Shown: positions 5,395-26,641 of the stretch, piece after piece
How positions within the stretch are numbered: the first letter of the stretch is position 1
Layout: every line of letters starts with the position of its first letter
Origin: Desulfotalea psychrophila LSv54
GTDB taxonomy: Bacteria > Desulfobacterota > Desulfobulbia > Desulfobulbales > Desulfocapsaceae
Assembly: GCF_000025945.1 (NCBI RefSeq)
Contig: NC_006138.1
Span: 1,560,001 to 1,592,000 of the forward strand
Length of the DNA stretch: 32,000 nt
Direction of reading: 5' to 3'
The notes under the pieces: generated by a model
The model's database searches: none
The model's input: the letters and a program-made list of their open reading frames with translations, nothing else
What the model was told of the DNA's origin: nothing
Made by a program: the position numbers and the translations under genes

Positions 5395-5417
5395 TGGTCG
5401 GAGTGAGAGGCGATGGC
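5395..5417 (-). repeat. tRNA-Pro 3'-end-like relic (copy 1)
   Basis: tggtcggagtgagaggcgatgg on the plus strand. The first 15 nt are identical to the copy at 6226 and one mismatch from the genuine tRNA-Pro 3' end at 26564 (tggtcggaatgagagg). Confidence 0.45.
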
Positions 5418-5446
5418 CTTTCTCCCAAGGGGAGTCTTTACTAGCT

Positions 5447-5923
5447 CTACATCCAGACGATATACTTATTTTCAAAGTCTATTTTGAAGGGATGTTTCTT
5501 GAGGAAATCCACTCCCAGCAGGCCCCTGTTTTGGGACCCAGATTGCGGGTATGTCGAGACGGTGAAATTGTACTCATGCTCCGTGCTAACCCTTAGCATA
5601 TCCAGCTCCACAGAGCGGCCATAGCATTTTGAACCATTGGCGACCGTTGCCACCACCTTTGGTCCATAGTTAGCTCTCATCCCCTTTAGATATCTATAGG
5701 GGATGGTTGTATGGCTGGAGCCCGTGTCGAGCACCATATAAACCCTTTTGCTTCTGCCTCTATGTCGCAGGGTGACCGGAATAAGTATTTGATTGTTAAT
5801 GATAGTTATTTTGGTGATATTTTTTTTCGCCCTATTGACACTGCTGCCGATATTTTTGCCATTTGCTCCAGGCACAGCTAAAAAGAATAACAGCACAAAC
5901 AGGGATAAAAAACGCATTTTCAA
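5447..5923 (-). CDS. Secreted retropepsin-like (clan AA) aspartic protease
   Basis: 158-aa ORF with a signal peptide (MKMRFLSLFVLLFFLAVPGANG). It has the catalytic-type motif MVLDTGSSHTTIP and a distal GLLGVDFL motif, both typical of bacterial retropepsin-like proteases. Confidence 0.75.
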   Translation of the reverse strand: MKMRFLSLFVLLFFLAVPGANGKNIGSSVNRAKKNITKITIINNQILIPVTLRHRGRSKRVYMVLDTGSSHTTIPYRYLKGMRANYGPKVVATVANGSKCYGRSVELDMLRVSTEHEYNFTVSTYPQSGSQNRGLLGVDFLKKHPFKIDFENKYIVWM

Positions 5924-6174
5924 ACTTTCTCCTCAGGCTATTTTCTCTCCTTAAATATTAAAACGTGCCACCTTTTTTGCCTGTTCTCCTCTGCTGGACA
6001 AAAACAGGTATCGTCCATTTACCAAATTTTGCTGTGAAATACCACGCATTTTCAAGCAGGTTCAAGAGCTGTGGAAAATGGCTGGAAATTAATTTTTGTA
6101 CGCCTGCTGAGGAGCTTGCGAAGAACAGTCAGTTAATTCGTGGCAAGGTGGGGGGGGCTATAAAAAAAAGCTAA

Positions 6175-6250
6175 CAAAAAAGGGCCTTAAAAGCTCTGCC
6201 AGCTCTTAAGGCCCTTTCTGTTTTATGGTCGGAGTGAGAGACGAATCACT
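6175..6250 (-). repeat. Duplicated tRNA-Pro terminator hairpin plus 3'-end relic (copy 2)
   Basis: aaaaaagggccttaaaagctctgccagctcttaaggccc...tggtcggagtgagagacgaatcac parallels 26513-26590 (aaaaaagggccttaaaagctttatcagctcttaaggccc...tggtcggaatgagaggattcgaacc). Confidence 0.65.
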
Positions 6251-6305
6251 GTCCTGGGTTTACTAAGACCATTCTCATACTTTTTTTTCTGCTAAAATAA
6301 AGCGC

Positions 6306-6626
6306 CTATTGATAGCTCAGGTCAATATCAAGGCTGTCAAGCATCTGCTCCAGGGTCGCAAGAGAACTGTGGCACTGGCTAATATGTTGTTCAAAGGGGT
6401 GAATGGAATCTACCAGGGCACAGGCCTGGGCGGCATGGAGACGTAAAGAGGAGATTTTTTCGCTGGCGCTATTAAGGTTCACCTCTCGATCCTTTAAGAT
6501 TTTCTCGATCTCATCGCAGATGTGGCTGATGGTCGCATGGCCTGTGTAGCGTTCGATTTCGCTCTGGTCGGCCAGATTGTCGAGTAGCTTTTTGATTGCC
6601 TTTACAGCTAGGTAGTAGTCGAGCAT
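6306..6626 (-). CDS. Hypothetical 106-aa helical protein
   Basis: ORF only, with no recognisable motif. It is divergent from the HD-GYP gene. Confidence 0.45.
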   Translation of the reverse strand: MLDYYLAVKAIKKLLDNLADQSEIERYTGHATISHICDEIEKILKDREVNLNSASEKISSLRLHAAQACALVDSIHPFEQHISQCHSSLATLEQMLDSLDIDLSYQ

Positions 6627-6960
6627 GGCTGTCTCTCCTTATATTTTTTGAGTAAGTCGGGAGTAGAAGGAAGAGACTCTCTTATTGGCTCCTCTCCGAG
6701 TCTCTTGCTTATTTTAAGCCTAGCAGGGAAGAGATCCTCTTTCAAATGAGAACTCAACTTATTGTCGGAGTGGCGATAGGAGGGGGGCTGCTGCCTGCAA
6801 AGAGGTCAAAGATTATCATGCTTGGCAAAAAATATTAGGTACGCCTTATAATACTCTTGACTAAATAGAATAATATTGGCTATATACCTCTCATAAATAG
6901 ATATTATCTGTAATTTATGGTGAGTCATCCTTGCCAATTGGCCGGACAGCACGGGGGTAA

Positions 6961-7716
6961 GTGCCGCTGGGCTTTATTCAGACATTTTGGGGAGAATTAG
7001 TTTTGTCATCTTTTAGCGCCAAGCCTGTATCCTTATTGCCCAGTGTTTTGGGTCTTCATTCCGTGGTTGATATGGTGGTCGCGACACTTGATATTCGTGA
7101 TCCTTATACCTCTGAACACTCCCATCGTGTCGCCGGTCTAGCTGAACTTTTGGCTGAGGCGATGGCACTTTCTCCTGAACAGTGCCGTCTTGTCCATTAC
7201 GCGGCCCATCTTCATGATATAGGTAAGATAGGGGTGTCTGATAGTACCTTAAATAAAATTGGAAAATTGACAGCTGAAGAGATGGCGGAGATGCAGGCTC
7301 ATTCGGAAATCGGGGCAATGATCCTCAGTAAAAATCCGGAATTTACCCTCTTGGCAGAGATTGTTCGGCATCACCACGAACGTTGGGATGGTAAGGGTTA
7401 TCCTGATGGCATAAGTGGTGATGCCATTCCACTTGAATCTCGGATCATCGGTCTGGCAGATGCCTTTGATGCGATGACATCAGATCGTCCATATAGAGCT
7501 CATAAAACACATGAATGGGCCCTTGAGGAGATTAAGAAGCACGCAGGTAGTCAATTTTGCCCTGAATGTGTCAGCATTTTCCTCACCCTTCGCGCAAAAT
7601 TAAAACTTAATCAGTATCAAAGTAGTAAGAGAGCCTTCTCTCACCATCAGGCCAATGTCAGACATCATACTCTTATGCACTCTCAGCGGATCAGATCAAT
7701 GCCAACAAGACATTGA
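6961..7716 (+). CDS. HD-GYP domain protein (putative c-di-GMP phosphodiesterase)
   Basis: Motifs HSHRVAGLAELLA, HLHDIGKIGV, HHHERWDGKGYPDG and GLADAFDAMTSDRPYR. The start is uncertain: GTG at 6961 in the track, with ATG at 7072 as an alternative. Confidence 0.8.
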   Translation: MPLGFIQTFWGELVLSSFSAKPVSLLPSVLGLHSVVDMVVATLDIRDPYTSEHSHRVAGLAELLAEAMALSPEQCRLVHYAAHLHDIGKIGVSDSTLNKIGKLTAEEMAEMQAHSEIGAMILSKNPEFTLLAEIVRHHHERWDGKGYPDGISGDAIPLESRIIGLADAFDAMTSDRPYRAHKTHEWALEEIKKHAGSQFCPECVSIFLTLRAKLKLNQYQSSKRAFSHHQANVRHHTLMHSQRIRSMPTRH

Positions 7717-7760
7717 GAAGTCTGTAAAGAACGGATGTTGATTTTCTGGCCTCTGTTGCT

Positions 7761-8042
7761 CTACTCTGGAGCAGGGCATGTAAAGAGCACGAAGAGTGTC
7801 AGAAAAAAATGTATCGAGGCTAGGGGGTAACTGCCTGGACAGGGCATGATCTTCGACGCAGCAGGAGAATCCTGCCTGCCGAGAGGGTGTACCGCCTGAC
7901 ACAGGCGAATCTTGTGTTGCCTTTTACTGCCATCGAGAACGGTAATGGTATCACCATCAGCAATGCTGATAACCTTGTCAGAAAGTGTCTGTGTCTGGGT
8001 AGTTGTACTTGCAAATAATAGGCAGATAAAAAAATTGCTCAC
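7761..8042 (-). pseudogene. Thermonuclease (SNase)-like N-terminal remnant
   Basis: A signal-like N-terminus followed by KVISIADGDTITVLDGSKRQHKIRL resembles the start of SNase-family nucleases. The expected DTPE catalytic segment and the C-terminal half are missing or out of frame. The 93 aa compares with a typical length of about 150 aa. Confidence 0.35.
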
Positions 8043-8152
8043 TCATGTAATTCATCAAGTGTGATAAGTTCAAAGCTTACATCATCCCACCAAATACTTA
8101 AAATAATGTAATTTGTCTTTTCCCGCCCCGTTCTCTGTGTACCTGTGACAAT

Positions 8153-8302
8153 ATAAGAAGTTGGCCGATAGTTCTTGGTGGACTTTTGGCTGCCCGCAGG
8201 TCTCTGTTTACAGAAGCCAAATCTCTTTTGAGTTGATGTTGTTTTTTTGATATCATCCGTAGTGGATGCAGGTCTGCGTTTGTCGGCCTTTGAGTCAGGC
8301 AA
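8153..8302 (-). repeat. ~150-nt noncoding-looking repeat, copy A (inverted relative to copy B at 24287-24427)
   Basis: The reverse complement shares long identical runs with copy B: gccgacaaa, cagacctgcatccacta, ggatgatatcaaaaaa, caacatcaactcaaa, tggcttctg, ctatcggccaac. The two copies differ by a 13-nt indel. Confidence 0.7.
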
Positions 8303-8416
8303 GGTTGGCAGGCACCTGGAAAAGGAGGTGAGCCATCCCCGTATAAGTGGCTTTAGTTACATCTTTATCTGATTGATTAAGCAAGGAATTTTTTGAATTT
8401 AAAAGGAGAAAAAATT

Positions 8417-8635
8417 ATGAGTACAGCCGGAAATGATATCGCTCAAATGAACGATCAGATAGCAAAGTATGGTTCCGTTACTCAGTTTGGTATTCGCATC
8501 TCAAGCATTACGGGTACAGCCGACGATCCGAATCAGAGTTCCGGCATCGCTTCCAAGACGGACAAAGGTCTTGGTGGCTATAATGGTAGTTGGGAGGTGG
8601 GCAACTGGGGGGATACCCTGAGATTTACTGTTTAG
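8417..8635 (+). CDS. Small hypothetical protein (72 aa)
   Basis: ATG at 8417 follows AAAGGAGAAAAAATT. Sequence: MSTAGNDIAQMNDQIAKYGSVTQFGIRISSITGTADDPNQSSGIASKTDKGLGGYNGSWEVGNWGDTLRFTV. No family recognised. Confidence 0.45.
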   Translation: MSTAGNDIAQMNDQIAKYGSVTQFGIRISSITGTADDPNQSSGIASKTDKGLGGYNGSWEVGNWGDTLRFTV

Positions 8636-8823
8636 GAGCAGTGACTCCAGAACGTTGGTTCGTTCAGGTCTCGGGTATCCGGCCCGAGGTCTGAATCGGA
8701 CTTAAAGGTAAAGGTGTCTGTCTATGATTTTTGTAATTCGGCCCAACCTCTCATTGGAGCCATTACTGTGAATTCTGTGGACACTTTACTTAATTATTTG
8801 TGGAATTCATCATGAAGAACATA

Positions 8824-8883
8824 ATCCAACATTGAACGCGGACGGGCGAAAAAGCCCGACATCCGGTTAATTCAGCGTTAATA
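8824..8883. other. attC-like imperfect palindrome (candidate recombination site)
   Basis: ATCCAAC-ATTGAACGC-GGACGGGC-gaaaaa-GCCCGAC..-GCGTTAAT-A. ATTGAACGC pairs with GCGTTAAT leaving one extra-helical G. The reverse strand ends in GTTGGAT, which fits GTTRRRY. Confidence 0.3.
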
Positions 8884-9157
8884 TTGTCAAATCGAAAGGC
8901 TTTGCTCAATGCTTCAAGTTGAAATTTATATTGTAGGTTACGGATCTCGAATCTAGTCTCTTGTAGGCTGTTTGTCGACGTTTTCAAGGCCTGCCTGGCA
9001 TTTATTTGAGCTGTTCAAAGGGGAGGATTAGTGATCGTCCGAGATCTGGGACAAATTTAACGATTTAGAGGTGAAGAACAACTGCATTATGGCTTATGGT
9101 GCAGGCCTGTATTGCTGGGCCTGTTAGGTGGAAAAGACCCAAAAGGGCGGAAGAGCA

Positions 9158-9601
9158 ATGAAAAAACAAATTATAGTTGTTCTGGTAAACTTATTATTAT
9201 TAACGGGGTGTGCGGGAACTATGTCTGAGCTGGGGATAAAAAATGGTGAGCTGACGCCGTGCCCGAAAACACCAAACTGTGTGAATAGTCAGGCGGTTGG
9301 AGAAAAACATTATATTCAACCTATCCGTTACGCAGGAACACGGCAGGAGATGCGAGTCCGTCTCTTGCAGATACTTGAGGCCGAAAAGCGAACAAATATT
9401 CTGACGGTTCAGGAGGATTATGTTCGAGTAGAATTTACGTCAGCATTGTTTCGATTTGTTGATGACGTGGAGTTTTATTTTCCGGAGGAGCAAAGCGGCG
9501 AGACGGTTATTTATGTTCGATCCGCTTCCCGGCTCGGATATTCTGATCTTGGTGCCAACCGGAAACGAATTGAGTGGATTCGAGGTGAATTTAATAAATA
9601 G
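9158..9601 (+). CDS. DUF1499 family lipoprotein
   Basis: Lipobox LLLLTGC and the hallmark PCPKTPNCVNSQ segment. ATG at 9158 follows GGAAGAG. Confidence 0.75.
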   Translation: MKKQIIVVLVNLLLLTGCAGTMSELGIKNGELTPCPKTPNCVNSQAVGEKHYIQPIRYAGTRQEMRVRLLQILEAEKRTNILTVQEDYVRVEFTSALFRFVDDVEFYFPEEQSGETVIYVRSASRLGYSDLGANRKRIEWIRGEFNK

Positions 9602-9741
9602 GTTTTAGACCTCTAGCGGCGTCGCTGAATAACGCTTGCCCAAGTTAGGTGCTTTCTTGCCGGTAACCCGGCAGCTCTTCACTGGTAGAGATGTTGCACT
9701 TATTATTTGAACTCAGCTTAGGGATTTTTAAAAGATATATC

Positions 9742-10284
9742 ATGAATAATTGGGATCAAGATAAATATCTAGAAGCGTGGAATTTTGCCTCTGCCATTCA
9801 TAATGGGCAAAAGATACCTGGAAGCGATATACCTTATATTAATCACCTTGGGCTCGTTGCAATGGAGGCGGTAGCAACTGTAGCCAATAAAAACATCCAA
9901 AATTCTAATATTCTTGTTTTGTGTGCGTTATTGCATGATTCTATTGAGGATACGGCAACGACCCATGAAGATATTAAAAAAATATTTGGCTCTGATATTG
10001 CTGATGGCGTTTTATCGCTCACTAAAAATAAAAAATTGCCTTCCAAGGTTGAACAAATGCTGGACAGTATTGCTAGAATAAAAACTCAACCTAAAGAGGT
10101 GTGGATGGTTAAGTTATGTGATCGAATCACGAATTTACAACCACCGCCAAGGCACTGGAACAAAGAAAAAATTGGCAAATATCAAAATGAAGCTCGCCTT
10201 ATATTAGAGAAATTAGGAGAGGCAAGCCAGTTTCTTGCAGAAAGATTAAAAATGAAAATTGATGCATATGACCAATATTTATAA
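9742..10284 (+). CDS. Stand-alone HD-domain protein of the RelA/SpoT hydrolase type (small alarmone hydrolase-like)
   Basis: PYINHLGLVAMEA...LLHDSIEDTATTHEDIKKIFGSDIADGVLSLT matches the (p)ppGpp hydrolase HD motif layout. About 180 aa, with no synthetase domain. Confidence 0.7.
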   Translation: MNNWDQDKYLEAWNFASAIHNGQKIPGSDIPYINHLGLVAMEAVATVANKNIQNSNILVLCALLHDSIEDTATTHEDIKKIFGSDIADGVLSLTKNKKLPSKVEQMLDSIARIKTQPKEVWMVKLCDRITNLQPPPRHWNKEKIGKYQNEARLILEKLGEASQFLAERLKMKIDAYDQYL

Positions 10285-10292
10285 AAATCATA

Positions 10293-10360
10293 GGCCCTGT
10301 TGCATAAATTATGAGGGAAAAAAATCAGCTCTTCTCTACTCCATCTCATCTGCTTATAGC
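10293..10360 (+). mobile_element. Partial MITE copy (one terminal repeat plus ~50 nt)
   Basis: ggccctgttgcataaattatgagggaaaaaaatcagctcttctctactccatc aligns with the left end of the full copy at 20623. I found no matching right end. Confidence 0.5.
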
Positions 10361-10807
10361 ACTCTTTGCTGTCCGCGGCACCATCGCCTGATATCTGTTT
10401 AATGCGACGACGAAGAGGGTTCAATAAGGGTCTCAAGGCCTTGGCATCACGAACTGACTTTATTGGAATTTCACTTAGGCGATTAGTTTCTGTATCAATA
10501 GCAAGGTGAAATTTGTGTCAAATTCTATGCCTTGCAGCTCCCTCTTCTTCATCTATCTTGCCCGTGCTTTCCGTCCTGCCCTATGATTATTAACTTCCCT
10601 TGGCCAGGCTGGTGAGACTTGAACTTGACTGCTTGAGCTCGATTGCATTGTCATGCTTCGTCCTCTCAATCCAGGTTGTTCAGTGTTGGACCAATTTTTG
10701 CTAACTATTCCAGTGAAATGTGGAGGGTGAGTCTGAATGATAGTTTCTGCAGAGAAAAGTATTGATTCTTTGTGTTTTTAAAATAATTTACATATAATTT
10801 TTTTATG

Positions 10808-10822
10808 AGTACTTAAAGTACT
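10808..10822. promoter_or_regulatory. Perfect 15-bp palindrome AGTACTT-A-AAGTACT upstream of the binding-protein/sensor operon
   Basis: Read directly, in an AT-rich region about 220 nt upstream of the ATG at 11045. A further AAGTAC half-site lies about 20 nt downstream. Confidence 0.25.
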
Positions 10823-11044
10823 ATAGCAAAAAGCCTAAAAGTACAGGGGATTTTTATGATTTCTTCAGGCGATTTTCAAACCAAAACAATTCGCTTATCC
10901 TTCCCTTTTGCTACCATGTCTCATCTACCCCTTCGCGCATCTTCATACCGTAGAGGCTTGTTGTGGGTATACAAATTATAAAATAATATGAGCTTTTAAA
11001 ATCATTGTCTATCCTTTTGCCTACGTTTTTAAGGAGAGCCCTTA

Positions 11045-12046
11045 ATGGAGCAGAACCGTAATCCTCTTGTCCATATCTACAGAGTAGCAACAGAGATATT
11101 TTTTATTGCCCTGCTCATCTGCTTCTCAGCAGCCCTATCCCTTGCTGCTAAACATGTCCGACTCGCATTGCAATGGTACCCGCAGGCACAATTTGCCGGC
11201 TATTACATGGCGCACGAAAAAGGAATATATGCCTCTCATGGTCTTGAGGTGGAAATACTTCCTGGCAGTGCAAATATGAATGGTTGTGAAAAAGTTCGCC
11301 TGGGAAAAGCAGAATTTGCTACAGCATTTTTATCTGATGCTTTGCAACTGCGCTCTCAAGGTGTACCTCTTGTTAATGTTGGTCAGTTTGTGCAGCGATC
11401 TGCGCTTATGCTGGTGGCCCGTAAGGATTCGGGGATAAAGACTATTCATGACCTTGATGGAGCCAGGATTGGCACCTGGGGTGAGGACTTTTGTCTGCAG
11501 CCTAAAGCCCTGTTCAAGCGTGAGGGGTTGAATGTGACACTTGTCAGGCAATCTCAGTCGTTTGAGCTGTTCATGCGCGGCGGCATCGATGTGGGTTTGG
11601 CTATGTGGTACAACGAGTATCATCGCTTGCTCTCCTATGGCTTGAATGAGGATGAGATGACCATCTTCTTTTTTAGCGATTTGGAGATGAATCTGCCAGA
11701 AGACGGAATTTACAGTCTGGAGTCTACCTTTAACGAATCTCCAGAGACTGCCCAAACGCTGGTGGAGGCGACTGCCGAAGGTTGGTTGTACGCCTTTGCT
11801 CACCCTGAAGAGACTGTCGACACCATGCTTCGCATCATGAAAGAGAGCAAGGTCAAGGCCAATAGAGCCCATCAAACATGGATGCTGGACCGCATGAAAG
11901 ATCTTCTCTTAGTCAAAGGGCAAAAGCAATTAAAGACGATACTGAAAGAGAGCGATTTCATTCGGACCCAAGAGGTGCTGCGCTTTCCAGGAGGCAAGCA
12001 GTCAGAGTTGATATACCAGGATTTCTACAAAGGAGACCTGCAATGA
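11045..12046 (+). CDS. NMT1/THI5-like (SsuA/TauA-type) substrate-binding protein, membrane-anchored
   Basis: N-terminal TM helix, then LQWYPQAQFAGYYMAHEKGIYASHGLEVEILPG, typical of this binding-protein fold. Its stop overlaps the next gene's start (ATGA). Confidence 0.75.
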   Translation: MEQNRNPLVHIYRVATEIFFIALLICFSAALSLAAKHVRLALQWYPQAQFAGYYMAHEKGIYASHGLEVEILPGSANMNGCEKVRLGKAEFATAFLSDALQLRSQGVPLVNVGQFVQRSALMLVARKDSGIKTIHDLDGARIGTWGEDFCLQPKALFKREGLNVTLVRQSQSFELFMRGGIDVGLAMWYNEYHRLLSYGLNEDEMTIFFFSDLEMNLPEDGIYSLESTFNESPETAQTLVEATAEGWLYAFAHPEETVDTMLRIMKESKVKANRAHQTWMLDRMKDLLLVKGQKQLKTILKESDFIRTQEVLRFPGGKQSELIYQDFYKGDLQ

Positions 12047-13977
12047 GAATAAACGGAATCGCCTTTCGGCTGGCGTCACTCACCCTGGCCTTTTCCACCC
12101 TGATTTTTGCCGTTATTATTGGCTATAATTATACAGTTTCACGTGGAATTATTGAAGATCTTGCTGAAGATCGGGGCACCCTTTTAGCCGCATCAACAGG
12201 TCAGCGAATAGCTGCAGTGCTGAACTCTATGGAAAAGGTTGCCGACTCTATTGCCTTTTCCCTTGAGGATGGCAACCTCAATGAAAAACGGCTCCAGGAA
12301 CTGGGGACGCAGGTCCTCATGAATAATCAGGAAATTTTTGGGACTGCCATAGCATTTGAACCCTACGGATTTGATCCGGAAAAGCTGTATTACGCCCCCT
12401 ACTCTTTTCGCTCACAGAACAAAATATCGTCCACCAACCTTGGCAGGCCGGGTTATCAGTATTTTTATATGGACTGGTATCAGTTGGCAAAAGAGTTGGA
12501 AAAATCGATTTGGACTGAACCCTACTTCGATACCGGAGGGGGGCATCAGCTTATGTCCACCTATTCCGTTCCCTTTTACCGTAAGGATGGAAAAGAAGAG
12601 GTGCTGGCGGGAGTGGTTACGGCTGATATCTCTCTTGACTGGATGCAGAAGCTGATAGCTGAGATCAATACAAATGAAACCGGCTATGTTTTTTTGCTTT
12701 CGCGCTACGGTACATACATTGCCCATCCCAATGCAAAGGTGGTGATGAACGAGACGATCTTCACCTCCGCTGAAAACCAGGGACAACCTCTTCTTCGTGA
12801 CATAGGGAGACGGATGGTTGCGGGCGAGTCTGGAGTTGAAGAACTGGCAGATTTACCTTTAACCGGGGACAGCTTTCTCTACTTTACCTCTTTACCTGAG
12901 CAAGAGTGGTCCATTGGGGTTGTTTTTCCAAAACAGGAGATGTTTGCCGGGGTAGCACGTTTGACCAAAGAGGTCGTCACCTTGGCTGTTCTTGGCTTTG
13001 TAGCTCTAGCCCTGCTCCTGATCTATCTTTCCTGTAAAATCACCCGTCCTCTTCGAAGTCTTACCGGCTCGGTAAATGACATTGCCTCTGGTAATTTGGA
13101 TGTAGATCTGCCTGCTGTTGTCGCCCAGGATGAGGTTGGCGAACTGACAGGATCAATTATAACCATGCGTGATTCCCTGAAACAATATATCGCTAACCTG
13201 ACGGAAACTACCGCGGTTAAAGAGCGCATCGAGTCTGAGCTTCGTATTGCCCATGATATTCAGATGTCTATTCTGCCTAAGCTCTTCCCGGCATTTCCCA
13301 ATAGATCTGAATTTGATATTTACGCAAGCATTGAGCCAGCAAGGGAGGTCGGTGGCGATCTCTATGATTTTTTCTTCATTGATGAGAATCGGTTCTGCTT
13401 TCTGGTGGGTGACGTCTCTGGTAAGGGCGTACCGGCTGCGTTCTACATGGCTGTCACCAAAACTCTGCTTAAGGTGGTCGCTGAAAGGGGGCTTAATCCG
13501 GGTGAAATACTGGCGAAGGTTAATAATGATCTGGCCGAAGATAACGATGCCTGTATGTTTGTCACCCTGTTTTTGGCGGTGATTGATATTGGTACTGGAG
13601 AGGTGCTTTATGCCAATGCAGGTCATAACCCGCCCCTCTTTATACCTAAGGGTGGAAAAGCAGAATGGATACCTCCATTAAACGAGCTGGTGGCAGGTGC
13701 AATGGAGGATTCTGTTTATACAACTAAATCTATGACCATGCAGCCCGGGGATACCCTCTTTATCTATACCGACGGGGTCACTGAAGCCATGGACAGTAAA
13801 CAGAGCCTCTATTCAGATGATCGTTTACTTACAGAAGTAGACCGCTGTAGCGGCCTTGCTGCGAAGCCGTTCATCCATGCCATCGATGACTCCATAAAAG
13901 CATTTACCGGTGGGGCCGAGCAATCGGACGATATAACCATGCTTGCCATGCAGTTTCTTGGCAAAAAGAATATTTAA
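12043..13977 (+). CDS. Sensor protein: Cache-HAMP-PP2C (SpoIIE/RsbU-type) serine phosphatase
   Basis: ATG at 12043 (MRINGIAFRLASLTLAF...). A periplasmic Cache-like segment (YYAPYSF...TEPYFDTGGGHQLMSTYSVPFY...GYVFLLSRYGTYIAHPN) is followed by a second TM helix, a HAMP region (RPLRSLTGSVNDIASGNLD), then AHDIQMSILP...GGDLYDFF...VGDVSGKGVPAAFYMA...GHNPP...TDGVTEA...DDITMLA. Confidence 0.85.
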   Translation: MRINGIAFRLASLTLAFSTLIFAVIIGYNYTVSRGIIEDLAEDRGTLLAASTGQRIAAVLNSMEKVADSIAFSLEDGNLNEKRLQELGTQVLMNNQEIFGTAIAFEPYGFDPEKLYYAPYSFRSQNKISSTNLGRPGYQYFYMDWYQLAKELEKSIWTEPYFDTGGGHQLMSTYSVPFYRKDGKEEVLAGVVTADISLDWMQKLIAEINTNETGYVFLLSRYGTYIAHPNAKVVMNETIFTSAENQGQPLLRDIGRRMVAGESGVEELADLPLTGDSFLYFTSLPEQEWSIGVVFPKQEMFAGVARLTKEVVTLAVLGFVALALLLIYLSCKITRPLRSLTGSVNDIASGNLDVDLPAVVAQDEVGELTGSIITMRDSLKQYIANLTETTAVKERIESELRIAHDIQMSILPKLFPAFPNRSEFDIYASIEPAREVGGDLYDFFFIDENRFCFLVGDVSGKGVPAAFYMAVTKTLLKVVAERGLNPGEILAKVNNDLAEDNDACMFVTLFLAVIDIGTGEVLYANAGHNPPLFIPKGGKAEWIPPLNELVAGAMEDSVYTTKSMTMQPGDTLFIYTDGVTEAMDSKQSLYSDDRLLTEVDRCSGLAAKPFIHAIDDSIKAFTGGAEQSDDITMLAMQFLGKKNI

Positions 13978-18330: not shown

Positions 18331-18420
18331 TATTGGAGGTGTTAGGTACTTGTAGGGATATTGAGTAAAATGTCTTCTTGTGTTGTTTTGCTGCTGCTCC
18401 GTAAAAGGAACCCTGGAGTG

Positions 18421-19971: not shown

Positions 19972-20052
19972 TTGGCAACCAGCGAAGCGCATCCCAAACA
20001 GCGCCTTGGTATGTGCGCTAATATTTATTATGAGTATCTGCTTGGTTGGCAA
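19972..20052. other. Weak attC-like element bounded by TTGGCAAC / GTTGGCAA
   Basis: cTTGGCAACCagcgaag...ctgcttgGTTGGCAACC. The flanks are partly self-complementary, and the element lies directly after the stop of the 140-aa ORF. Orientation is ambiguous because the core is near-palindromic. Confidence 0.25.
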
Positions 20053-20064
20053 CCTAAGGCTGGC

Positions 20065-20487
20065 CTATTCTGCTAAGAGCTTTTTAAGCAGCTCATCTAT
20101 TTCCCTTTGAAGTTCTTTATCTACAATTTTATTCGCACTAATTTTGGCTTCTTGGAGATTCTTGAGAGCTTCGTCAGTTCGACCTAATTCTACCTGTAAT
20201 GTAGCCATAGAGTATGCAATTGAAGACATATGGTCTTTTGAATTTATAGCGATTGCCTTCTCCAGGGCCTTTTCGTAGCCAGTTACGGCAACTTCCAAAT
20301 TTTCTGTAAAATCCGCAAGTGTTTCCCACTGTTCAGGGTGATCTTTGGCGGTATTTTCGTTATCGATGCAAATAGCCTTGAGTTCTGCATAGAGCCTATC
20401 AAATTCCTTTTCACTCTTTTGCTTAGACGCATGCATGAGCTTTTCAGACAGGGTATAGACGGCCTTATATATCTTGCTATTAATCAT
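20065..20487 (-). CDS. Hypothetical 140-aa all-helical (TPR-like) protein
   Basis: ORF only, in an AT-rich segment. The helical-repeat flavour (…AYSMATLQVELGRTDEALKNLQEAK…) is suggestive, with no firm family. Confidence 0.5.
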   Translation of the reverse strand: MINSKIYKAVYTLSEKLMHASKQKSEKEFDRLYAELKAICIDNENTAKDHPEQWETLADFTENLEVAVTGYEKALEKAIAINSKDHMSSIAYSMATLQVELGRTDEALKNLQEAKISANKIVDKELQREIDELLKKLLAE

Positions 20488-20622
20488 TACTCATTACCTT
20501 TTCTCTACAAAATGATTTTTTAGTGAGATGAAACAAAGTACATTATGCTGGAGGTGGACAGCAAGCGCAAGATATTAAAATTTGAAAAGTGGGTGAGCGG
20601 GAGCCGGTTTTCGATCCTACAC

Positions 20623-20905
20623 GGCCTTGTTGCATAAATCATGAGGGCAGAAAATCATCTTCCCTCCACTCCATTACATCTTAGCAAACAGTCTCTCGAA
20701 CAGGCATTCCAAAAGCGGTAATCTTGTTTAAAGCTTCAATCGCTTTTTTGTCCACCCAAAACGTTAACATCATTACTTCAGTGCCCTTATACTCCGACCA
20801 ATTTTTGATCTTTCCCCTGCTCTCTCCCCTGTATCCTCCAATGCTCTATGTTATAAGAAAACATCATCGAACAATGCTCGCAACTTCTATTTGTGCAACA
20901 AGGCC
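20623..20905 (+). mobile_element. MITE, long variant (283 bp) with 17-nt terminal inverted repeats
   Basis: The left end is ggccttgttgcataaat. The right end reverse-complemented is ggccttgttgcacaaat (16 of 17). It has no ORF of its own, and its right part overlaps the 3' end of ORF 20864-21322. Confidence 0.75.
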
Positions 20906-21322
20906 CCATGGGGTTAATAATTTTATTGTATTTATTGTGTATTTAGCACTTTTATTAAGTGCATTTATATCTCGTGTAACACAATTAATTAAACCCCACC
21001 CATCTTGGTGTTTCCAATAATTTGCTCCCGCATTTATTACTTTAATATACGAAAGCTCATCTGTTATTTTTTTGCCTAGCTTTAAAGCATCATCTTTTCT
21101 AACATCTAATTGAGGGTATGTGCTTGAAATATATCGTTGAATTAGTGAAAACCCTACACCGATAAAATATTCACCTTTGTCGCATAATCTATCTGAATCA
21201 GGATCAGCAGAAAGGCTTATTTCATTGTTAATAGCTTTAACTTTAAAATCAAGGTGTTCTAGCATTTCTGTAAGAAAATAGAAATCACTGTCAGCAAACT
21301 CTTTTCCAATTTTGAGATACAT
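20864..21322 (-). CDS. Hypothetical 152-aa protein; the last ~13 codons are supplied by the inserted MITE
   Basis: ATG at 21322 lies 31 nt after the attC-like core and is preceded by ACGGAG. The reading frame crosses into the MITE after ...LLTPWG. Contains ...INAGANYWKHQDGW... Confidence 0.55.
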   Translation of the reverse strand: MYLKIGKEFADSDFYFLTEMLEHLDFKVKAINNEISLSADPDSDRLCDKGEYFIGVGFSLIQRYISSTYPQLDVRKDDALKLGKKITDELSYIKVINAGANYWKHQDGWGLINCVTRDINALNKSAKYTINTIKLLTPWGLVAQIEVASIVR

Positions 21323-21353
21323 ATAACAGCTCCGTACACTGAACTATAGATAA

Positions 21354-21461
21354 GCCTAACGCTTCGTTAACTGGCGCATAGGTTGCTATTGTTTTTACTC
21401 TTTTTCTTTTGCAAAAACGATGACAGCCGTTTACGTGTCCGCGTTTAACGACTTGTTGTAT
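21354..21461 (-). other. attC-like site (minus-strand top strand)
   Basis: The minus strand reads (tg)ATACAAC-AAGTC-GTTAAAC...GTTAAC-GAAGC-GTTAGGC. That is an inverse core (6 of 7 to RYYYAAC) overlapping the stop codon, 5-nt spacers, L boxes pairing with one extra A, and a perfect GTTRRRY core. Confidence 0.55.
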
Positions 21462-22099
21462 CAATGGCTAATGATTTCAATTAGTATTTCTCCGTACTTA
21501 TTTTTTGTGTATATAACCCCACCTGAATCTTCTTCTCCAGCTACCCCACCATCAATGCCGCCGAAGCTTAAAAAACCTACTTTATAAAGCTCTCCAGCAG
21601 TAAGTTGGTCATTTGGACAACCATTTGAAAAATCAACGATGTACTTTAAATCACCATAAAATGAGCGCTCAATCATCAGGCATATACGAATAGTTTCATC
21701 ATAATTACATTGATTCATGAAAAGACGTTCAAATACTTTTGCGTACAATTCGAATTTCCTTGAATCATCAGCTTTTTCAATAAGAGATAATACAGTTTCT
21801 CCAAATCTTTCTCGTTGTTCAGCCTCAAGCATTTCCTCAGCAATAAACCGAAGCCGCGCCTCCTCATTAGTTTTATTTAGCTCAGATAGGAAACGGATAA
21901 GTTTTTTTACATACTGCCTTTCTTTTACCGCAATACCAGTCTTGAAAATAGCTATGGCAGAACCTACTATTGGAATGTCCTTTAAAAAACCATTTTCCAA
22001 TACGGAATCTACCGCTATCTCAGCTAGGTTAGTTCCAGTACCTTCAAGCTTTTGTCCCATAGTTTGGACTATCGATTCTTCTAATTTCAATTCACTCAT
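21461..22099 (-). CDS. Hypothetical 212-aa protein
   Basis: ATG at 22099 lies 32 nt after the preceding attC-like core. No family recognised (…FLKDIPIVGSAIAIFKTGIAVKERQYVKKLIRFLSEL…). Confidence 0.6.
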   Translation of the reverse strand: MSELKLEESIVQTMGQKLEGTGTNLAEIAVDSVLENGFLKDIPIVGSAIAIFKTGIAVKERQYVKKLIRFLSELNKTNEEARLRFIAEEMLEAEQRERFGETVLSLIEKADDSRKFELYAKVFERLFMNQCNYDETIRICLMIERSFYGDLKYIVDFSNGCPNDQLTAGELYKVGFLSFGGIDGGVAGEEDSGGVIYTKNKYGEILIEIISH

Positions 22100-22131
22100 A
22101 GTAACTCTAGATTTAAGTTATTCACTTATGG

Positions 22132-22198
22132 ATATAACGCTAAGTTGAGCGGCGCCGATTACGGCGTTCGAGTGCAGGGCGCGAACGCACTGTTAGCC
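22132..22198 (-). other. attC-like site (best example)
   Basis: The minus strand reads GGCTAAC-AGTGC-GTTCGCGCC...GGCGCCGCTCAAC-TTAGC-GTTATAT. From memory, this is the same box and spacer architecture as classical attC sites such as attC-aadA7 (GTCTAAC-AATTC-GTTCAAGC...GCTTAAC-TCAAGC-GTTAGAT). Confidence 0.6.
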
Positions 22199-22375
22199 TG
22201 CACTTAAAACTGGGCTTATTTCGCTCTCCCTAGTGGTTATTGACAGGCCAGCATCATCTTTCAGTTTGATAGGTTTAGTCGAATAGCACATTTACCATAT
22301 GCCTAACATTGATTGATATCGAAAAAAGACTTTTTATAACATATTGTTGGCCTAAAGATGCTGTTTTTTAGTTGA

Positions 22376-22445
22376 CCCAAACAGTAGGTTCGCGCCCTGG
22401 TTCGAGTGCTGCTTTCAGTCGAGCAGCTCGAACGACTGGTTAGAT
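22376..22445 (-). other. attC-like site with a degenerate 3' core
   Basis: The minus strand reads ATCTAAC-CAGTC-GTTCGAGCTGCT...AGCAGCACTCGAAC-CAGGGC..., then GTTTGGG. The inverse core is perfect and starts 4 nt after the stop at 22450. The R-prime side is irregular. Confidence 0.4.
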
Positions 22446-22449
22446 GTTT

Positions 22450-22958
22450 TTATAATTTATCTGGTTTTTTAATCATTTCTTTTTCATACTGTTGAATTAG
22501 ATTTTTATTTATACATTCTTGTACATTACGAGTAAGAGAATATAAGTTTTTTTCTGATCTAATAGGCAAATCTAAAGCAAATTTAGTTAAATGTACTGAC
22601 AGCGTTTTGTGATTTTTAGATTTTAATTGTAACGTTAGGTTAGATTTTTTTTTTCTAAATGACAAATTATTTCATACTGATGTTGTCTTTTTTGAAACTC
22701 TGGCTCTTCATTGGAGGAATTTTGCAAAACACTGTTAGATGCATGATAGTTTAATAAGACTTGATTGATTTGTATGAGCAATGCTTCATCTTGCTTTTTT
22801 TTATTAATTGACTCTTGATTTCTTTGGGCAAAAAACTTTCTCCCACAGCCAATAATGCACCCAGAATTATATATAGTAGTTCCATTTTTTACACCTAACA
22901 AGTTATTCTTCACTTTCCTGATATCATCCCAAATCACAATTTGATAATGCTTTTTCAT
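22450..22958 (-). pseudogene. Hypothetical gene split into 115-aa and 71-aa ORFs at an A10 tract
   Basis: The A-run (plus-strand T-run 22645-22654) sits exactly at the junction: ...ICHLEKKNLT-stop versus (TTG)SFRKKKSNLTLQLK... One extra A would give a single product of about 175-180 aa. I place the start at ATG 22958 (MKKHYQIV...). Confidence 0.45.
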
Positions 22959-23034
22959 CCATGATCCTGCCAGCCTTACCAATCAACTTACAGCACTCCA
23001 ACCTAAGCGCCCACGGCTACCCTCCTTACAAAGG

Positions 23035-23100
23035 GGTGTGCTAACAGTCTCCAACCACTGTCCTACACTATTACTTTTTTATGAGCAATAGTTAAGCACC
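23035..23100 (-). other. Weak attC-like element upstream of the first cassette-like ORF
   Basis: On the minus strand, GGTGCTTAAC...GTTAGCACACC are complementary ends, and GCTTAAC fits RYYYAAC. The inner arms are asymmetric. Confidence 0.25.
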
Positions 23101-23127
23101 TTTAGGTGTACGTGCGGGGTCCGCTAC

Positions 23128-23292
23128 GATTGGTTGGCGAAGATTATGCAGCAACATCGGGATAAAAATGAAAAAGAGAGGCACGGGTGTGGAATGGATG
23201 GGGCCATTGCCTATGCTGGCAGAAGAAACAGATTGTTACAAGGGTTGGGCTGCGATAAGGCCCGCAGCACCGGGCAATTGGGGCGCAGCGGA
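23128..23292 (+). repeat. Dispersed repeat family R2, copy 2
   Basis: See 14002-14160. Both copies have the same orientation and begin with gattggttggc. Confidence 0.4.
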
Positions 23293-23382
23293 AAGCTATC
23301 CACCCACTATATGCCATAAATCGGTTTTCTTCTTCAGCTTGAGTGCTGTTGTTATGCGCTTTTTAGAAGTCCAGTAAGGTTG

Positions 23383-24111
23383 TCATAGTTTCCACGGCCT
23401 AAACTTTTGATCAGCCCCAAATAGGAGTAAGCCGGACGTAAGATCATTACCAGACGGGATTTGGAGTCGTTTACTCAACGACCGAAGAACCTTATCGACA
23501 CGTTTAGGTGGTTCCAAAAGGAATGTTTTACCTTCTGGTGTGGTACATAAAGATGGACTCGTAAGACTATGGTACGCCCTGCATAAGACAGGTCGTTGCT
23601 CATATATCCTGCAGGTTCGATTGAAAAGTAGCGGACATGGCTTACCTTCTTGCGATAGCTTATAGTGAGCTTCATATATCACTGGATGGTCGCTTGGAAT
23701 AGTAGTTATTCCAGGTTCTAGAAGAGCCTGAACTGCTTTCTGAAATTCGGAAGCATACTCAACAAGAAGTTTGTGGATATCTTTGTAGTCCTCAAATTGT
23801 CGTATCCTACGATAGAGAGATATGATCTCAAATGAGTAAAGCCCTCGGACTGGCTGTTTACAGCATCGATCACAAGTTAAATGGCAGGCGATTTCAAGGT
23901 TTGCTTCGACGGTATTGTGGTAAATATAATTATCATAAATACTGTAAAACTCTTGAAGCAATTCGAAGAACTCGTCAGGCAACCAACCAGTTACTGCAAA
24001 ATTATCGATCTCATGAACAGTATTAAGTTTGTTTGCCGCGACCACCATGCAATCAGTAAGCTGACGAGATTCATCATCATTAAGGGTTGGTAATTTTATT
24101 GGTTCATGCAT
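23383..24111 (-). CDS. YkgJ-family Cys-cluster (CxxCxxCC-type) zinc/iron-chelating domain protein
   Basis: CHLTCDRCCKQPV, and a distal CPLLFNRTCRIYEQRPVLCRAY. ATG at 24111; the track start at 24123 is a TTG. Confidence 0.7.
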   Translation of the reverse strand: MHEPIKLPTLNDDESRQLTDCMVVAANKLNTVHEIDNFAVTGWLPDEFFELLQEFYSIYDNYIYHNTVEANLEIACHLTCDRCCKQPVRGLYSFEIISLYRRIRQFEDYKDIHKLLVEYASEFQKAVQALLEPGITTIPSDHPVIYEAHYKLSQEGKPCPLLFNRTCRIYEQRPVLCRAYHSLTSPSLCTTPEGKTFLLEPPKRVDKVLRSLSKRLQIPSGNDLTSGLLLFGADQKFRPWKL

Positions 24112-24286
24112 GTGTACCCCCAAAACTCCATTCGCATAAAAAAATATCGTCCAGAAACGGGATATCTTTCAGCCGAAGTCAACCTGACAAGGCGATTTCT
24201 ATCCTGATAATATGCTGTTAACCTGACGCCATTCAATAAAGAGCAATAACCGGACAATCTCCCGCATGAGCCAGATTTTTTTCTGG

Positions 24287-24427
24287 CCTTGCCTGACCCA
24301 ACCGCCGACAAATACAGACCTGCATCCACTATGGATGATATCAAAAAAGCAACATCAACTCAAAGAGGTCTGGCTTCTGCAAGCATACAGCCACACCCGC
24401 AGACAGGGCTATCGGCCAACATCTTAT
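24287..24427 (+). repeat. ~150-nt repeat, copy B (inverted partner of 8153-8302)
   Basis: See copy A. Weaker similarity continues about 100 nt further on the outer side of both copies. Confidence 0.7.
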
Positions 24428-24740
24428 CCTCTCATAGGGAATATTCAGAAGCGCACCTCTAATCAGGTAACAGGAAGACGATGCAGGTTGTCTTATACGG
24501 CAGGGATAGGGAGAAGGCGGCCAGCATGCTGATTAAAATAGTATCAGGGGCAAGCAGGGGACTGTGCTACAGGTAGGTATGTTCATATAGCACAGAATTC
24601 TACATATGGAGGGCACAGGGTGCCAAAAGAAAGTAGGGCGCTCACAGGACCTCTTAGCGGGTATTACGAGGCAAAAGGATGCCCCAACCATGAACATTCT
24701 GTTGAGGTGTTGCTGGTCGGAGTGCCACCAAGGGAAAGTA

Positions 24741-24762: not shown

Positions 24763-24847
24763 GTCGATATTAGCTCTTATTCCGTCTTATAATAATCCAA
24801 AACCTATATTGATACGCAAGAGGGATAAAAGATTTTTCAAGGGAGGA

Positions 24848-24984
24848 ATGGGGTGGGAGTGGGCTGTTTTTTGTGCATTTCCTGCACCCTCTGCACTTAA
24901 AACAAAAAAGGACCTACAGCAAAAACTGTAAGTGCTTGAAATCGTTTGTCGGAATGAGAGGATTTGAACTTTCGATCTGTTGTC
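24848..24984 (-). repeat. Diverged duplicate of the tRNA-Pro 3' half plus ~100 nt of its downstream flank
   Basis: atggggtgggagtgggctgttttttgtgca...ctctgcacttaaaacaaaaaagg...tgtcggaatgagaggatttgaactttcgatctgttgtc parallels 26448-26600 (gggtggggaggtgagaacgagtgttttttgtgcg...tggtcggaatgagaggattcgaacctccggccccttgtc). Confidence 0.6.
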
Positions 24985-25046
24985 TAGATCCCTGATAAGG
25001 GTGTGGCTTTTTGGGGGAATGGAAAAAATCCGTGAAGCAGATCTTT

Positions 25047-26168
25047 TTATTTGATGCTGATGAGTTGTAAAAAATCATTTTTGTAAGTGACTGGGTATCC
25101 TTTTGCTATTATCGTCTTTCCGCTTTGATCCCGCCATGTGTATTCCTTATTGTTACTGAGATAGAGATATACAAGTTTTGTGTATCCTTTAGCAGGTATT
25201 TGATATCTGTTGTAGGCACAGTAGGTATTGCCTTTGGCAGTTGTCCATGCACAGATTTCAGTGGTTTCTGCTAATGTTTTTATTTCCGGTTCCCTTTCTG
25301 CTTGGTGAAAAGCAGTTTTTTGAGATTTTTCTGTTATGTTTGGCTGTGGCGTGACATTTTGCACAGATGGTGCTACTTGAATTGAATGCTTAGTGGGTGG
25401 CTGTAGCTGTGAAAATCTTGGTAAAAAAAGGGGAATTGCTAAAAATATGACCAAGCAACATGTTGCAATTATAGTCTTTTGTTGCCATGTGAAGCTCTGC
25501 TTTTTAGGTTGATTCTGGTCATATTGTAATGTTGTCCCATCAATCAAAACTACCCCAGATAAGCGAGCAAACTCTATTGCTTCATGAGTAAATGTTCCTG
25601 ACGTGACTACAAATGCACCATCTAAATGGTGAGCCTGCATAACACCGTATATTTCACGGATAACAGTAACTCCTACTCGATAGACCTTCCAGTGTTTGCA
25701 CTGAACAATATATTTTTTCTCGTCTCTTTTTAGCCAAACATCAACCCCACCATCAGAACTTTGCTTGATGTTGTTTTTTACCCTGTAGCCTTGATTTTTA
25801 AAATATTCTCCTGTGAAATATTCGAAATCTTGCCATGTTAATTCGGTCACAGATTCTTTTTCAAAAGCAGTTTTAGTTGCTCTTTTGTAGAGAAATTTTT
25901 TGAACAATGACTGGATAGCTCCAATAACAAGAGAAAAAGGCACGACAACTTGTCCAAATATAGCAATTGTTTGTAGAACACGAGGCAGGATAGAGGCAAA
26001 GAGCCCCTCTATTCCCATTTGAGGCGGGGGAAGTGGTTTTATTGCAAAGTAATGCAGCAAGGTAAAAGAAAGAAGTGCACAAACAAGGTAAAGCCACCAA
26101 GGAAGGTCTGAGAAACAAAGGTCTATAAAATTTTCTAGTGTACTTTTTCTTTTATTTGACATAAGCAA
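25047..26168 (-). CDS. Membrane-anchored Mrr-like (Mrr_cat type) restriction endonuclease-fold protein with an extra TM helix and an unknown C-terminal domain
   Basis: N-terminal TM helices are followed by WQDFEYFTGEYFKNQGYRV...DGGVDVWLKRDEKKYIVQCKHW (a D...QxK nuclease core), GAFVVTSGTFT, a further TM helix (IIATCCLVIFLAIPLFL), and about 120 aa of unknown fold. Confidence 0.75.
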   Translation of the reverse strand: MLMSNKRKSTLENFIDLCFSDLPWWLYLVCALLSFTLLHYFAIKPLPPPQMGIEGLFASILPRVLQTIAIFGQVVVPFSLVIGAIQSLFKKFLYKRATKTAFEKESVTELTWQDFEYFTGEYFKNQGYRVKNNIKQSSDGGVDVWLKRDEKKYIVQCKHWKVYRVGVTVIREIYGVMQAHHLDGAFVVTSGTFTHEAIEFARLSGVVLIDGTTLQYDQNQPKKQSFTWQQKTIIATCCLVIFLAIPLFLPRFSQLQPPTKHSIQVAPSVQNVTPQPNITEKSQKTAFHQAEREPEIKTLAETTEICAWTTAKGNTYCAYNRYQIPAKGYTKLVYLYLSNNKEYTWRDQSGKTIIAKGYPVTYKNDFLQLISIK

Positions 26169-26341
26169 TCAAACGATTCATCCAGGTCGTGGCTGACCTC
26201 TAGCCAAGACTTTTCGATAGAAACTTTTCGCATTGTTAACTTGATTTCGTAGAGATCTTCCTCTGCAATGTTAGAAGAAAGTATGTCGGCAATACTCCCT
26301 ATCCCTTCAAGTAAACTTCTATTTATGGTTGAGAATTTCAT
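26135..26341 (-). CDS. Small acidic hypothetical protein (68 aa) overlapping the start of the nuclease gene
   Basis: ORF only, with an ATG start. Its 3' end overlaps the nuclease ORF by about 30 nt. Confidence 0.35.
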   Translation of the reverse strand: MKFSTINRSLLEGIGSIADILSSNIAEEDLYEIKLTMRKVSIEKSWLEVSHDLDESFDCLCQIKEKVH

Positions 26342-26512
26342 AGCCTAATAATATACATGTTGGAGCTATCCTGTCAATATATGGAGGAACGTTAAGTGTG
26401 GATGAATATTTTCTATAGGGTGGTTAATACGGGTATTTTGAAGAAACAATGGGTGGGGAGGTGAGAACGAGTGTTTTTTGTGCGTCCTCTGCACTTATCT
26501 TGCACGTAAAAC

Positions 26513-26552
26513 AAAAAAAGGGCCTTAAAAGCTTTATCAGCTCTTAAGGCCC
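26513..26552 (-). terminator. Rho-independent terminator of tRNA-Pro
   Basis: The minus strand reads GGGCCTTAAGAGCT-gataa-AGCTTTTAAGGCCC followed by TTTTTTTGTTTT. Confidence 0.8.
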
Positions 26553-26563
26553 TATGCAAATAA

Positions 26564-26641
26564 TGGTCGGAATGAGAGGATTCGAACCTCCGGCCCCTTG
26601 TCCCCCAGACAAGTGCGCTAACCAGGCTGCGCTACATTCCG
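26564..26641 (-). tRNA. tRNA-Pro (anticodon GGG)
   Basis: The minus strand reads CGGAATG-TA-GCGC-AGCCTGGTTA-GCGC-A-CTTGT-CTGGGGG-ACAAG-GGGCC-GGAGG-TTCGAAT-CCTCT-CATTCCG-A-CCA. This is a full cloverleaf with a 7-nt anticodon loop (GGG at positions 34-36, G37) and an encoded CCA. Confidence 0.92.

Follow-up and report, generated by a model that had tools for sequence, protein, structure and literature searches.

In Desulfotalea psychrophila LSv54, the chromosomal segment lying downstream of the tRNA-Pro(GGG) gene is probably a decayed tandem array of integrative elements that targeted this tRNA and whose integrases have been lost, a reading that we hold with moderate confidence. The segment (positions 5395-26563) was studied within a window of 32,000 nt (assembly GCF_000025945.1, contig NC_006138.1, positions 1,560,001 to 1,592,000), whose own coordinates are used throughout. 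On the minus strand, the gene order in this window is rplT (31210-31566), pheS, pheT, ihfA (27217-27528), a degenerate MerR-family gene, and then tRNA-Pro(GGG), which is the sole tRNA found by ARAGORN and Rfam (26564-26641); Rfam scans retrieved no other family. Its position and 3' end, which reads TGGTCGGAATGAGAGGATTCGAACC on the plus strand, are those given by an initial annotation made from the sequence, which had also described five same-orientation relics of this 3' end farther downstream (Table 1, numbered outward from the tRNA). Foreign-looking DNA appears to begin just past the terminator of this intact tRNA gene.

Three same-orientation copies of the tRNA 3' end prove statistically solid, namely, relics 1 (24947-24984), 4 (6226-6240), and 5 (5395-5410). 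Self-BLAST of the tRNA and its flank against the window, a check that the initial annotation had proposed, recovered three sets of matches. The strongest aligns 6176-6240 with 26514-26578 (65 nt, 83% identity, E value of 4e-14) and takes in the terminator hairpin and 15 nt of the tRNA end. Two others, 24948-24969 against 26566-26587 (22 nt, 95%) and 24865-24909 against 26472-26518 (47 nt, 81%), each have an E value of about 1e-4 and are collinear, so that about 140 nt is duplicated there. The match at 5395-5410 (16 nt, one mismatch) has an E value of 0.4 taken alone; it has an exact 15-mer in common with the copy at 6226 (18/19 nt overall). No fragment of the tRNA 5' part was detected by self-BLAST anywhere in the window. 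The 16-mer TGGTCGGARTGAGAGG, allowing up to three mismatches, has six matches in the window versus 0.29 expected, four of which fall on the tRNA and on relics 1, 4, and 5. Similarly, six plus-strand occurrences of the 9-mer GTCGGARTG (5397, 6228, 6764, 24716, 24948, and 26566) were counted versus an expectation of 0.23, and its sole minus-strand occurrence is the tRNA's own 5' stem. Away from tRNA genes, where the initial annotation had suggested that the frequency of the relics be examined, the 9-mer occurs at only 0.19 per 21 kb in 1.64 Mb of control loci (the pheT regions of 86 genomes). In the same control loci, the 11-mer TGGTCGGAGTG has zero occurrences outside tRNA genes, and the 22-kb loci of three close relatives contain no extra copy.

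These figures bear on the simplest alternative, that short matches coincide by chance in a 32-kb window. Relic 3, with only 9 to 10 matching nucleotides, and the modest E value of relic 5 by itself speak for it; six same-strand 9-mers against the above expectation and background, the E value of 4e-14, and the exact 15-mer common to relics 4 and 5 speak against it. Chance is refuted for relics 1, 4, and 5, and as an account of the whole set it is hardly credible. Individually, about 0.015 occurrence per window is expected by chance for relic 2 (11 nt exact) and about 0.2 for relic 3, so that coincidence is possible for the latter and less so for the former. Strand and location lend both some credit, as do short motifs that they share: 10 nt inward of relic 2 there is a possible T-arm-like stretch, and, with a 4-nt gap permitted, the ATCGCC motif seen at relic 5 is also found at relic 3.

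Table 1. Features of the tRNA-Pro(GGG) locus, in window coordinates
Feature	Coordinates	Strand	Basis
Functional tRNA-Pro(GGG); predicted target, attL side of the integrations	26564..26641	-	ARAGORN; Rfam RF00005, 62.8 bits; relatives
Flank module 3' of the tRNA: hairpin 26519-26553, T-run, TGCAC repeats, C-rich stretch	26452..26563	-	Terminator scan; homology to 24847-24946 and 6150-6225
Islet A: orf68 (26135-26341) and membrane-anchored Mrr-type restriction endonuclease DP1421 (25047-26168)	24985..26451	-	
Relic 1: 3' 37 nt of a tRNA-Pro; putative attR of islet A	24947..24984	-	BLAST; alignment with relatives
Flank module behind relic 1: terminator-like hairpin 24912-24933, T-run, TGCAC repeats; about 80% identical to the module of the tRNA	24847..24946	-	
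Relic 2 (marginal): 11-nt exact match TGGTCGGAGTG, C68 type	24714..24724	-	
18-kb mosaic block	6241..24713		Pfam; GC3 and codon use; composition
MITE-like derivative of the IS below (283 nt), both terminal inverted repeats	20623..20905		
MITE-like derivative of the same IS (167 nt), both terminal inverted repeats	15641..15807		
Probable IS5-family IS remnant: terminal repeat GGCCCTGTTGCATAAAT and degraded DDE transposase fragment	10293..10700	-	
Relic 3 (marginal): TGTCGGAGTG, C68 type	6763..6772	-	
Relic 4: 15 nt exact, about 27 nt with 3-nt T-loop deletion; C68 tRNA-Pro-like core	6226..6254	-	
Flank module behind relic 4: hairpin 6177-6219, T-run, C-rich stretch	6150..6225	-	
Islet C: gene for a secreted retropepsin-like aspartyl protease (5447-5923)	5411..6149	-	Pfam gag-asp_proteas / Asp_protease_2, E value of 9e-10
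Relic 5 (outermost): CCTCTCACTCCGACCA on the tRNA strand	5395..5410	-	
Hairpins behind the cores	26553-26519 (tRNA); 24933-24912 (relic 1); 6219-6177 (relic 4); 5357-5382 (relic 5)		

The similarity between the copies extends beyond the tRNA itself. About 110 nt behind the core is common to the tRNA flank and the sequence behind relic 1 and is found in part behind relic 4, where the hairpin and that of the tRNA are 92% identical; the statements that the copy at 24947 brings duplicated flank with it and that the copy at 6226 brings the terminator hairpin are thus borne out. Each strong relic lies between the stop codon of a minus-strand gene and a terminator-like hairpin with a T-run, an arrangement matching that of the tRNA with its terminator. 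Relic 5 consists of the core only, without the flank module, and has, at a distance of 3 nt, the bidirectional terminator (5357-5391, consisting of a hairpin and a T-run at 5383-5391) of a convergent DUF134 gene. Islet A is bounded by a 22-nt repeat and islet C by a 19-nt repeat, each with one mismatch. The hairpin module has no match in viral contigs.

Repeated units of about 140 to 150 nt, which run well past the tRNA end (24847-24984 and 6150-6240) and are longer than typical attachment (att) site cores, could also be read as duplication scars that arose independently of an integrase, either through Campbell-type homologous insertion of circular molecules containing the unit or through a segmental duplication with later insertions. 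We regard this origin as rather unlikely, given that the copies always start within the tRNA 3' part, that the 5' parts are never duplicated, and that the outermost copy is a 16-nt core without flank. It is further disfavored by the distal cores, which depart from the resident tRNA and coincide with an att core that is widespread in phages, and by the integrase found at this exact site in a relative (both described below).

Comparison of the individual positions revealed two kinds of relics. Relic 1 carries A57 and T68 (TTCAAAT...CATTCCG), and its terminal 22 nt (24948-24969) are 100% identical to the tRNA of one relative (L001). T68 is present in the window tRNA and in all nine relatives in which the position is readable, and the T loop, which is TTCGAAT (G57) in the window tRNA, is TTCAAAT (A57) in eight of nine relatives. 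Relic 1 thus appears to be the displaced original host-type 3' end, and its presence together with G57 in the functional tRNA fits a classical integration with a crossover in the T loop. The 1.6-kb islet bearing the Mrr gene (24985-26563), with its low GC3, its promoter, its distant homologues (see below), and a host-type 3' end in the relic beyond it, presents itself as a clean case of integration.

Relics 2 to 5 carry C68 (CACTCCG), which is found in none of the relatives and would mispair with A5 of tRNA-Pro(GGG). A 3-nt deletion in the T loop is common to relics 4 and 5 and apparently also present in relic 3. The 16-mer of relic 5, CCTCTCACTCCGACCA, corresponds to the tRNA-Pro(CGG/TGG) 3' end in its generic form; IMG/VR contains it 80 times as a fragment outside tRNA genes, versus one such fragment of the T68 type, and a tyrosine integrase lies 70 to 750 nt from the fragment in at least 22 of 115 viral loci. 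C68 and the shared T-loop deletion indicate that the distal relics are copies of one degenerate element-borne core and not former host ends. Hence, the copies do not form the series of graded divergence from this particular tRNA that the initial annotation had seen in them.

The same C68 acceptor-stem sequence, being typical of tRNA-Pro(CGG/TGG), raises the alternative that the relics at 5395-6763 derive from a second, lost tRNA-Pro gene (CGG or TGG) with its own att scars. This is very improbable: the loss of an isoacceptor gene is itself unlikely, the T-loop deletion shared by three copies points to copies of a nonfunctional core, and tRNA-Pro(GGG) has a terminator with 92% identity to the one at 6177-6219. 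More weight attaches to the proposal that the region was acquired in one step, as a composite prebuilt by accretion at a tRNA-Pro(CGG/TGG) gene in another host or moved here by rearrangement, with only the Mrr islet being local. The C68 seen in four relics and the deletion seen in three would then reflect a generic core and not the resident tRNA, the transfer of whole composites has been documented (PMC5704250), and the remnants of IS5-family insertion sequences (ISs) and a 163-nt inverted repeat pair (see below) could have mediated rearrangements. Conversely, the 92% identity between the hairpin of relic 4 and that of the resident tRNA argues for a local or same-family origin, and the native-like composition of much of the block is unlike what is expected of a recent import of the whole 18 kb. 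We consider one-step acquisition unlikely; if it were true, the site could not be called a serial hotspot for this lineage.

The array of tRNA-Pro-targeted elements that we favor could have formed along the following lines. An integrative element has, within its attP site, a duplicate of the tRNA's 3' portion, and recombination rebuilds the tRNA with element DNA while a core copy comes to lie at the far end of the element. The elements would have entered by site-specific recombination of the tyrosine-integrase type, either at the tRNA-Pro(GGG) 3' end or at earlier att copies, and the crossovers of the C68 elements may have fallen in the last roughly 8 to 11 nt. The shared module of about 110 nt might be the P' arm of related elements, in which case it would point to repeated visits by one element family, i.e., accretion; the module adjoining the tRNA (26452-26563) is interpreted as a P' arm that the most recent element brought with it. 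At the other end, the terminator of the DUF134 gene may be the original chromosomal flank. The integrases would have been lost by deletion, and the 18-kb block would have been reshaped by IS5-family ISs and possibly by other rearrangement, so that the block need not be foreign throughout. Today the remnants would serve mainly as gene-plus-terminator units, with each relic following the stop codon of a gene that points the same way as the tRNA and preceding what was once a tRNA terminator. Thus, the core of the earlier proposal, that the tRNA 3' end served as an integration site more than once and left integrase-less remnants with att-like direct repeats, is retained.

The smallness of these units (0.2 to 1.6 kb) and their content of one or two genes co-oriented with the tRNA would also be accommodated if they were not remnants of random deletion but integrase-less "att cassettes" captured and shuffled at the tRNA-Pro gene by an integrase encoded elsewhere, and three junctions do have a conserved arm that supplies the terminator hairpin. 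We give this possibility little likelihood; if true, such cassettes would constitute an integron-like gene capture system operating on a tRNA att site and carrying a defense nuclease. At first glance, small, co-oriented, mostly single-gene units between short repeats also resemble integron arrays, and the initial annotation had spoken of a "cassette-like array" in the middle of the region. An integron reading of it was rejected: there is no IntI, attI, or attC-type site in the array, and its repeats are IS ends that occur in both orientations.

In place of cassettes, the repeats at 10293, 15641, and 20623 are, judged by their sequence, probably remnants and miniature inverted-repeat transposable element (MITE)-like derivatives of an IS5-family IS. 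A 75-aa fragment beside the end at 10293 matches PF01609 DDE_Tnp_1 with an E value of 1.5e-4 and 22 bits, which is below the cutoff of 23, and no intact transposase gene is present. Both MITE-like derivatives have the terminal inverted repeat GGCCTTGTTGCATAAAT at their two ends, and 115 nt of the derivative at 20623-20905 is 90% identical, in inverted orientation, to 15641-15755. This terminal repeat may resemble the end of IS903, a member of the IS5 family. The IS-like repeat has no match in plasmids. Each of these repeat units sits at the edge of an AT-rich islet.

Turning to the cargo of the small islets, DP1421 contains a Pfam Mrr_cat domain (E value of 6e-30) and matches ZorD-type (PADLOC) and PHROG profiles. 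Its islet has a G+C content at third codon positions (GC3) of 0.31 and its own promoter, a promoter-like site at 26377-26350 that was graded strong. The homologues of this Mrr protein are at most 41% identical, mostly gammaproteobacterial, and patchy in distribution, and they are too distant for a parent element to be named. The protease gene of islet C has the most deviant codon use in the window (codon score of -0.19). Atypical composition combined with patchy distribution characterizes the Mrr islet and the AT-rich islets.

These AT-rich islets lie within the 18-kb block and comprise an HD_4 gene (9691-10284), a SieB-like gene (15951-16244), and hypothetical genes (20065-24123). As had been noted from the sequence at the outset, such segments stand out by composition: the G+C content is 0.35 to 0.40 at 15-16.5, 20-23, and 25-26.4 kb versus 0.46 to 0.50 in pheST, and the GC3 of the AT-rich segments is 0.14 to 0.31 versus 0.44 to 0.48 in pheST. 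Several other genes of the block have native-like GC3 and codon use, namely, those for HD-GYP and DUF1499 proteins, NMT1 and a Cache-HAMP-SpoIIE sensor phosphatase, a prolyl aminopeptidase-like (Pip) α/β hydrolase, a xanthine/uracil permease, and a DEAD-box helicase. The claim that all DNA between the relics represents islands is therefore supported for the foreign-looking Mrr islet but not for the stretches encoding NMT1/SpoIIE, Pip, the permease, and the DEAD-box helicase, which look native.

Comparisons with relatives bear on the site itself. The gene order ending in tRNA-Pro(GGG) is the same in every relative recovered, and similarity to the window stops at the tRNA 3' end in each of those with readable downstream sequence. 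Beyond that point the neighbors all differ: core genes in L082, IS-like debris in L001, a sugar dehydrogenase gene in L193, a PAS sensor gene in L196, and an oxidoreductase gene in L197. In L083, a tyrosine integrase gene (Phage_integrase) lies 176 nt downstream of the same tRNA and is followed by orphan genes. Two metagenome contigs end inside the tRNA-Pro T arm, L081 at nt 51 of the tRNA (13318-13368) and L086 at nt 58 (11057-11114), and two more end 24 to 29 nt past the tRNA; the breaks at the T arm are consistent with the tRNA 3' part being repeated or strain variable in those populations. The relatives thus support a hotspot at the family level, and the variable blocks of the window are not definable from them.

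Several observations weigh against a decayed array of this kind. Pfam searches of about 35 open reading frames (ORFs) of the window revealed no Phage_integrase or resolvase domain, and tblastn searches of the window with the integrases of two relatives retrieved no integrase or fragment of one, in agreement with the earlier remark that no intact recombinase is present. Relics 2 and 3 are individually marginal, being short enough for chance. Homology reaching about 110 nt past the tRNA end is not predicted by a minimal att model and can be accommodated only if the elements are additionally taken to be related. By composition, a large part of the 18-kb block is native, so that its status as an island is not demonstrated. 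As the C68 relics are not former ends of tRNA-Pro(GGG), neither the order nor the number of events can be reconstructed from them. G57 is also found in the relative L085, which makes position 57 a weaker marker of origin. Finally, the PheT of the nearest relative is only 78% identical, and empty and filled sites are not comparable at this distance.

Among described systems, the closest case is the island array at ssrA of Dehalococcoides, in which the ssrA 3' end is repeated, as 20-bp units, more than a dozen times within 100 kb (McMurdie et al. 2011; PMC3146451). There, the islands are arranged in tandem, 15 of them lacking an integration module and 16 retaining a serine recombinase module, and a conserved mismatch between ssrA and the repeats as well as an insertion in the T loop have been reported (PMC3146451). 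The D. psychrophila locus has in common with that array same-orientation 3'-end repeats within tens of kilobases downstream, tandem units, a fixed mismatch between gene and repeats, an insertion in or near the T loop, and conservation extending past the repeat. It differs in that the target is tRNA-Pro(GGG), no integrase of any type is left, the islets are tiny (0.2 to 1.6 kb), the large block is partly native-like, and the array is known from one genome.

A second precedent is provided by the cis-mobilizable elements (CIMEs) and their accretion with integrative and conjugative elements (ICEs), as reviewed for ICESt1/ICESt3-CIME of Streptococcus thermophilus (PMC5704250). At the level of sequence alone, the units described here fall within the definition of a CIME, retaining attL and attR and having no integration or transfer genes. 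Like CIMEs, they have attL/attR-like flanks and arms related between neighbors, and as in CIME accretion, the array would grow by integration into a resident remnant's att site. Unlike in CIMEs, the distal cores, which have a deletion and mismatches, may no longer be functional, and no helper ICE or integrative and mobilizable element is known for this genome. Temperate phages that target tRNA-Pro offer a third parallel, in that the core of relic 5 is also present in about 80 viral contigs; in contrast to phages, the window has no phage structural, replication, or integrase genes, and phage ancestry is hinted at only by the SieB-like ORF and the Mrr nuclease with its PHROG match. With tRNA-targeted islands in general, the locus shares an intact tRNA and same-orientation distal 3'-end repeats; an integrase of its own beside the att site is not among the about 35 ORFs searched.

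Several further observations concern the 18-kb block and the flanks of the array. The SieB-like ORF (plus strand, 97 aa, G+C content of 0.27) matches the N-terminal half of Pfam SieB with an E value of 6e-12 and adjoins an IS remnant; the AT-rich orphan ORFs have no PADLOC or PHROG match. An inverted repeat pair of 163 nt (8142-8304 and 24287-24438), with sharp inner boundaries, brackets 16 kb of the block; its members are 77% identical overall and 91% identical over the inner 78 nt, have no internal terminal repeats, and yielded no Pfam match for the overlapping ORFs and no Rfam match. This pair could mark an invertible or transposed segment. A 93-aa minus-strand ORF at 7761-8042 has an N-terminal part, ISIADGDTITVLDGSKRQHKIRL, that we presume to resemble the start of a thermonuclease (SNase) before the frame is lost; Pfam detected no domain in it.

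On the tRNA side, the MerR-family gene (26718-27119, minus strand) has an in-frame stop and a scrambled helix-turn-helix region according to tblastn and is either a pseudogene or affected by a sequencing frameshift; a MerR-family gene is found between ihfA and tRNA-Pro in all of the relatives. In the relative L085 (PheT 71% identical), a Phage_integrase gene and a Peptidase_S24 repressor-like gene (3859-5043) lie directly upstream of thrS, a position that is occupied in other relatives by tRNA-Val(GAC) and that constitutes a second tRNA-linked integration site in the conserved cluster. On the left side, the DUF134 DNA-binding protein (4558-5334, plus strand) has an unusual tail of about 150 aa with GQG/GLG-type repeats, and the underlying DNA consists of degenerate tandem repeats (4974-5298). 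Farther left, the best homologues of BrnQ (3000-4316, plus strand) are from Desulfobacteraceae and Desulfoluna (64 to 67% identity) and not from the relatives of Desulfotalea. BrnQ was accordingly rejected as a left synteny anchor, as it gave no ancestral junction, and the conserved core may likewise not include the DNA beyond the outermost relic on this side.

Taken as a decayed array, the locus would be a fresh instance of a well-known phenomenon and reveals no new mechanism. It would account for about 21 kb of mosaic, partly AT-rich chromosome in D. psychrophila and would mark the Mrr-type nuclease DP1421 and the neighboring orphan genes as horizontally acquired. The two kinds of relics suggest that att relics can have two origins, displaced host ends and element-borne cores, a distinction that matters when integrations are dated or ordered. 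More broadly, tRNA-Pro(GGG) at the end of the thrS-infC-rplT-pheST-ihfA cluster would be a landing site for mobile elements in Desulfotalea and its relatives.

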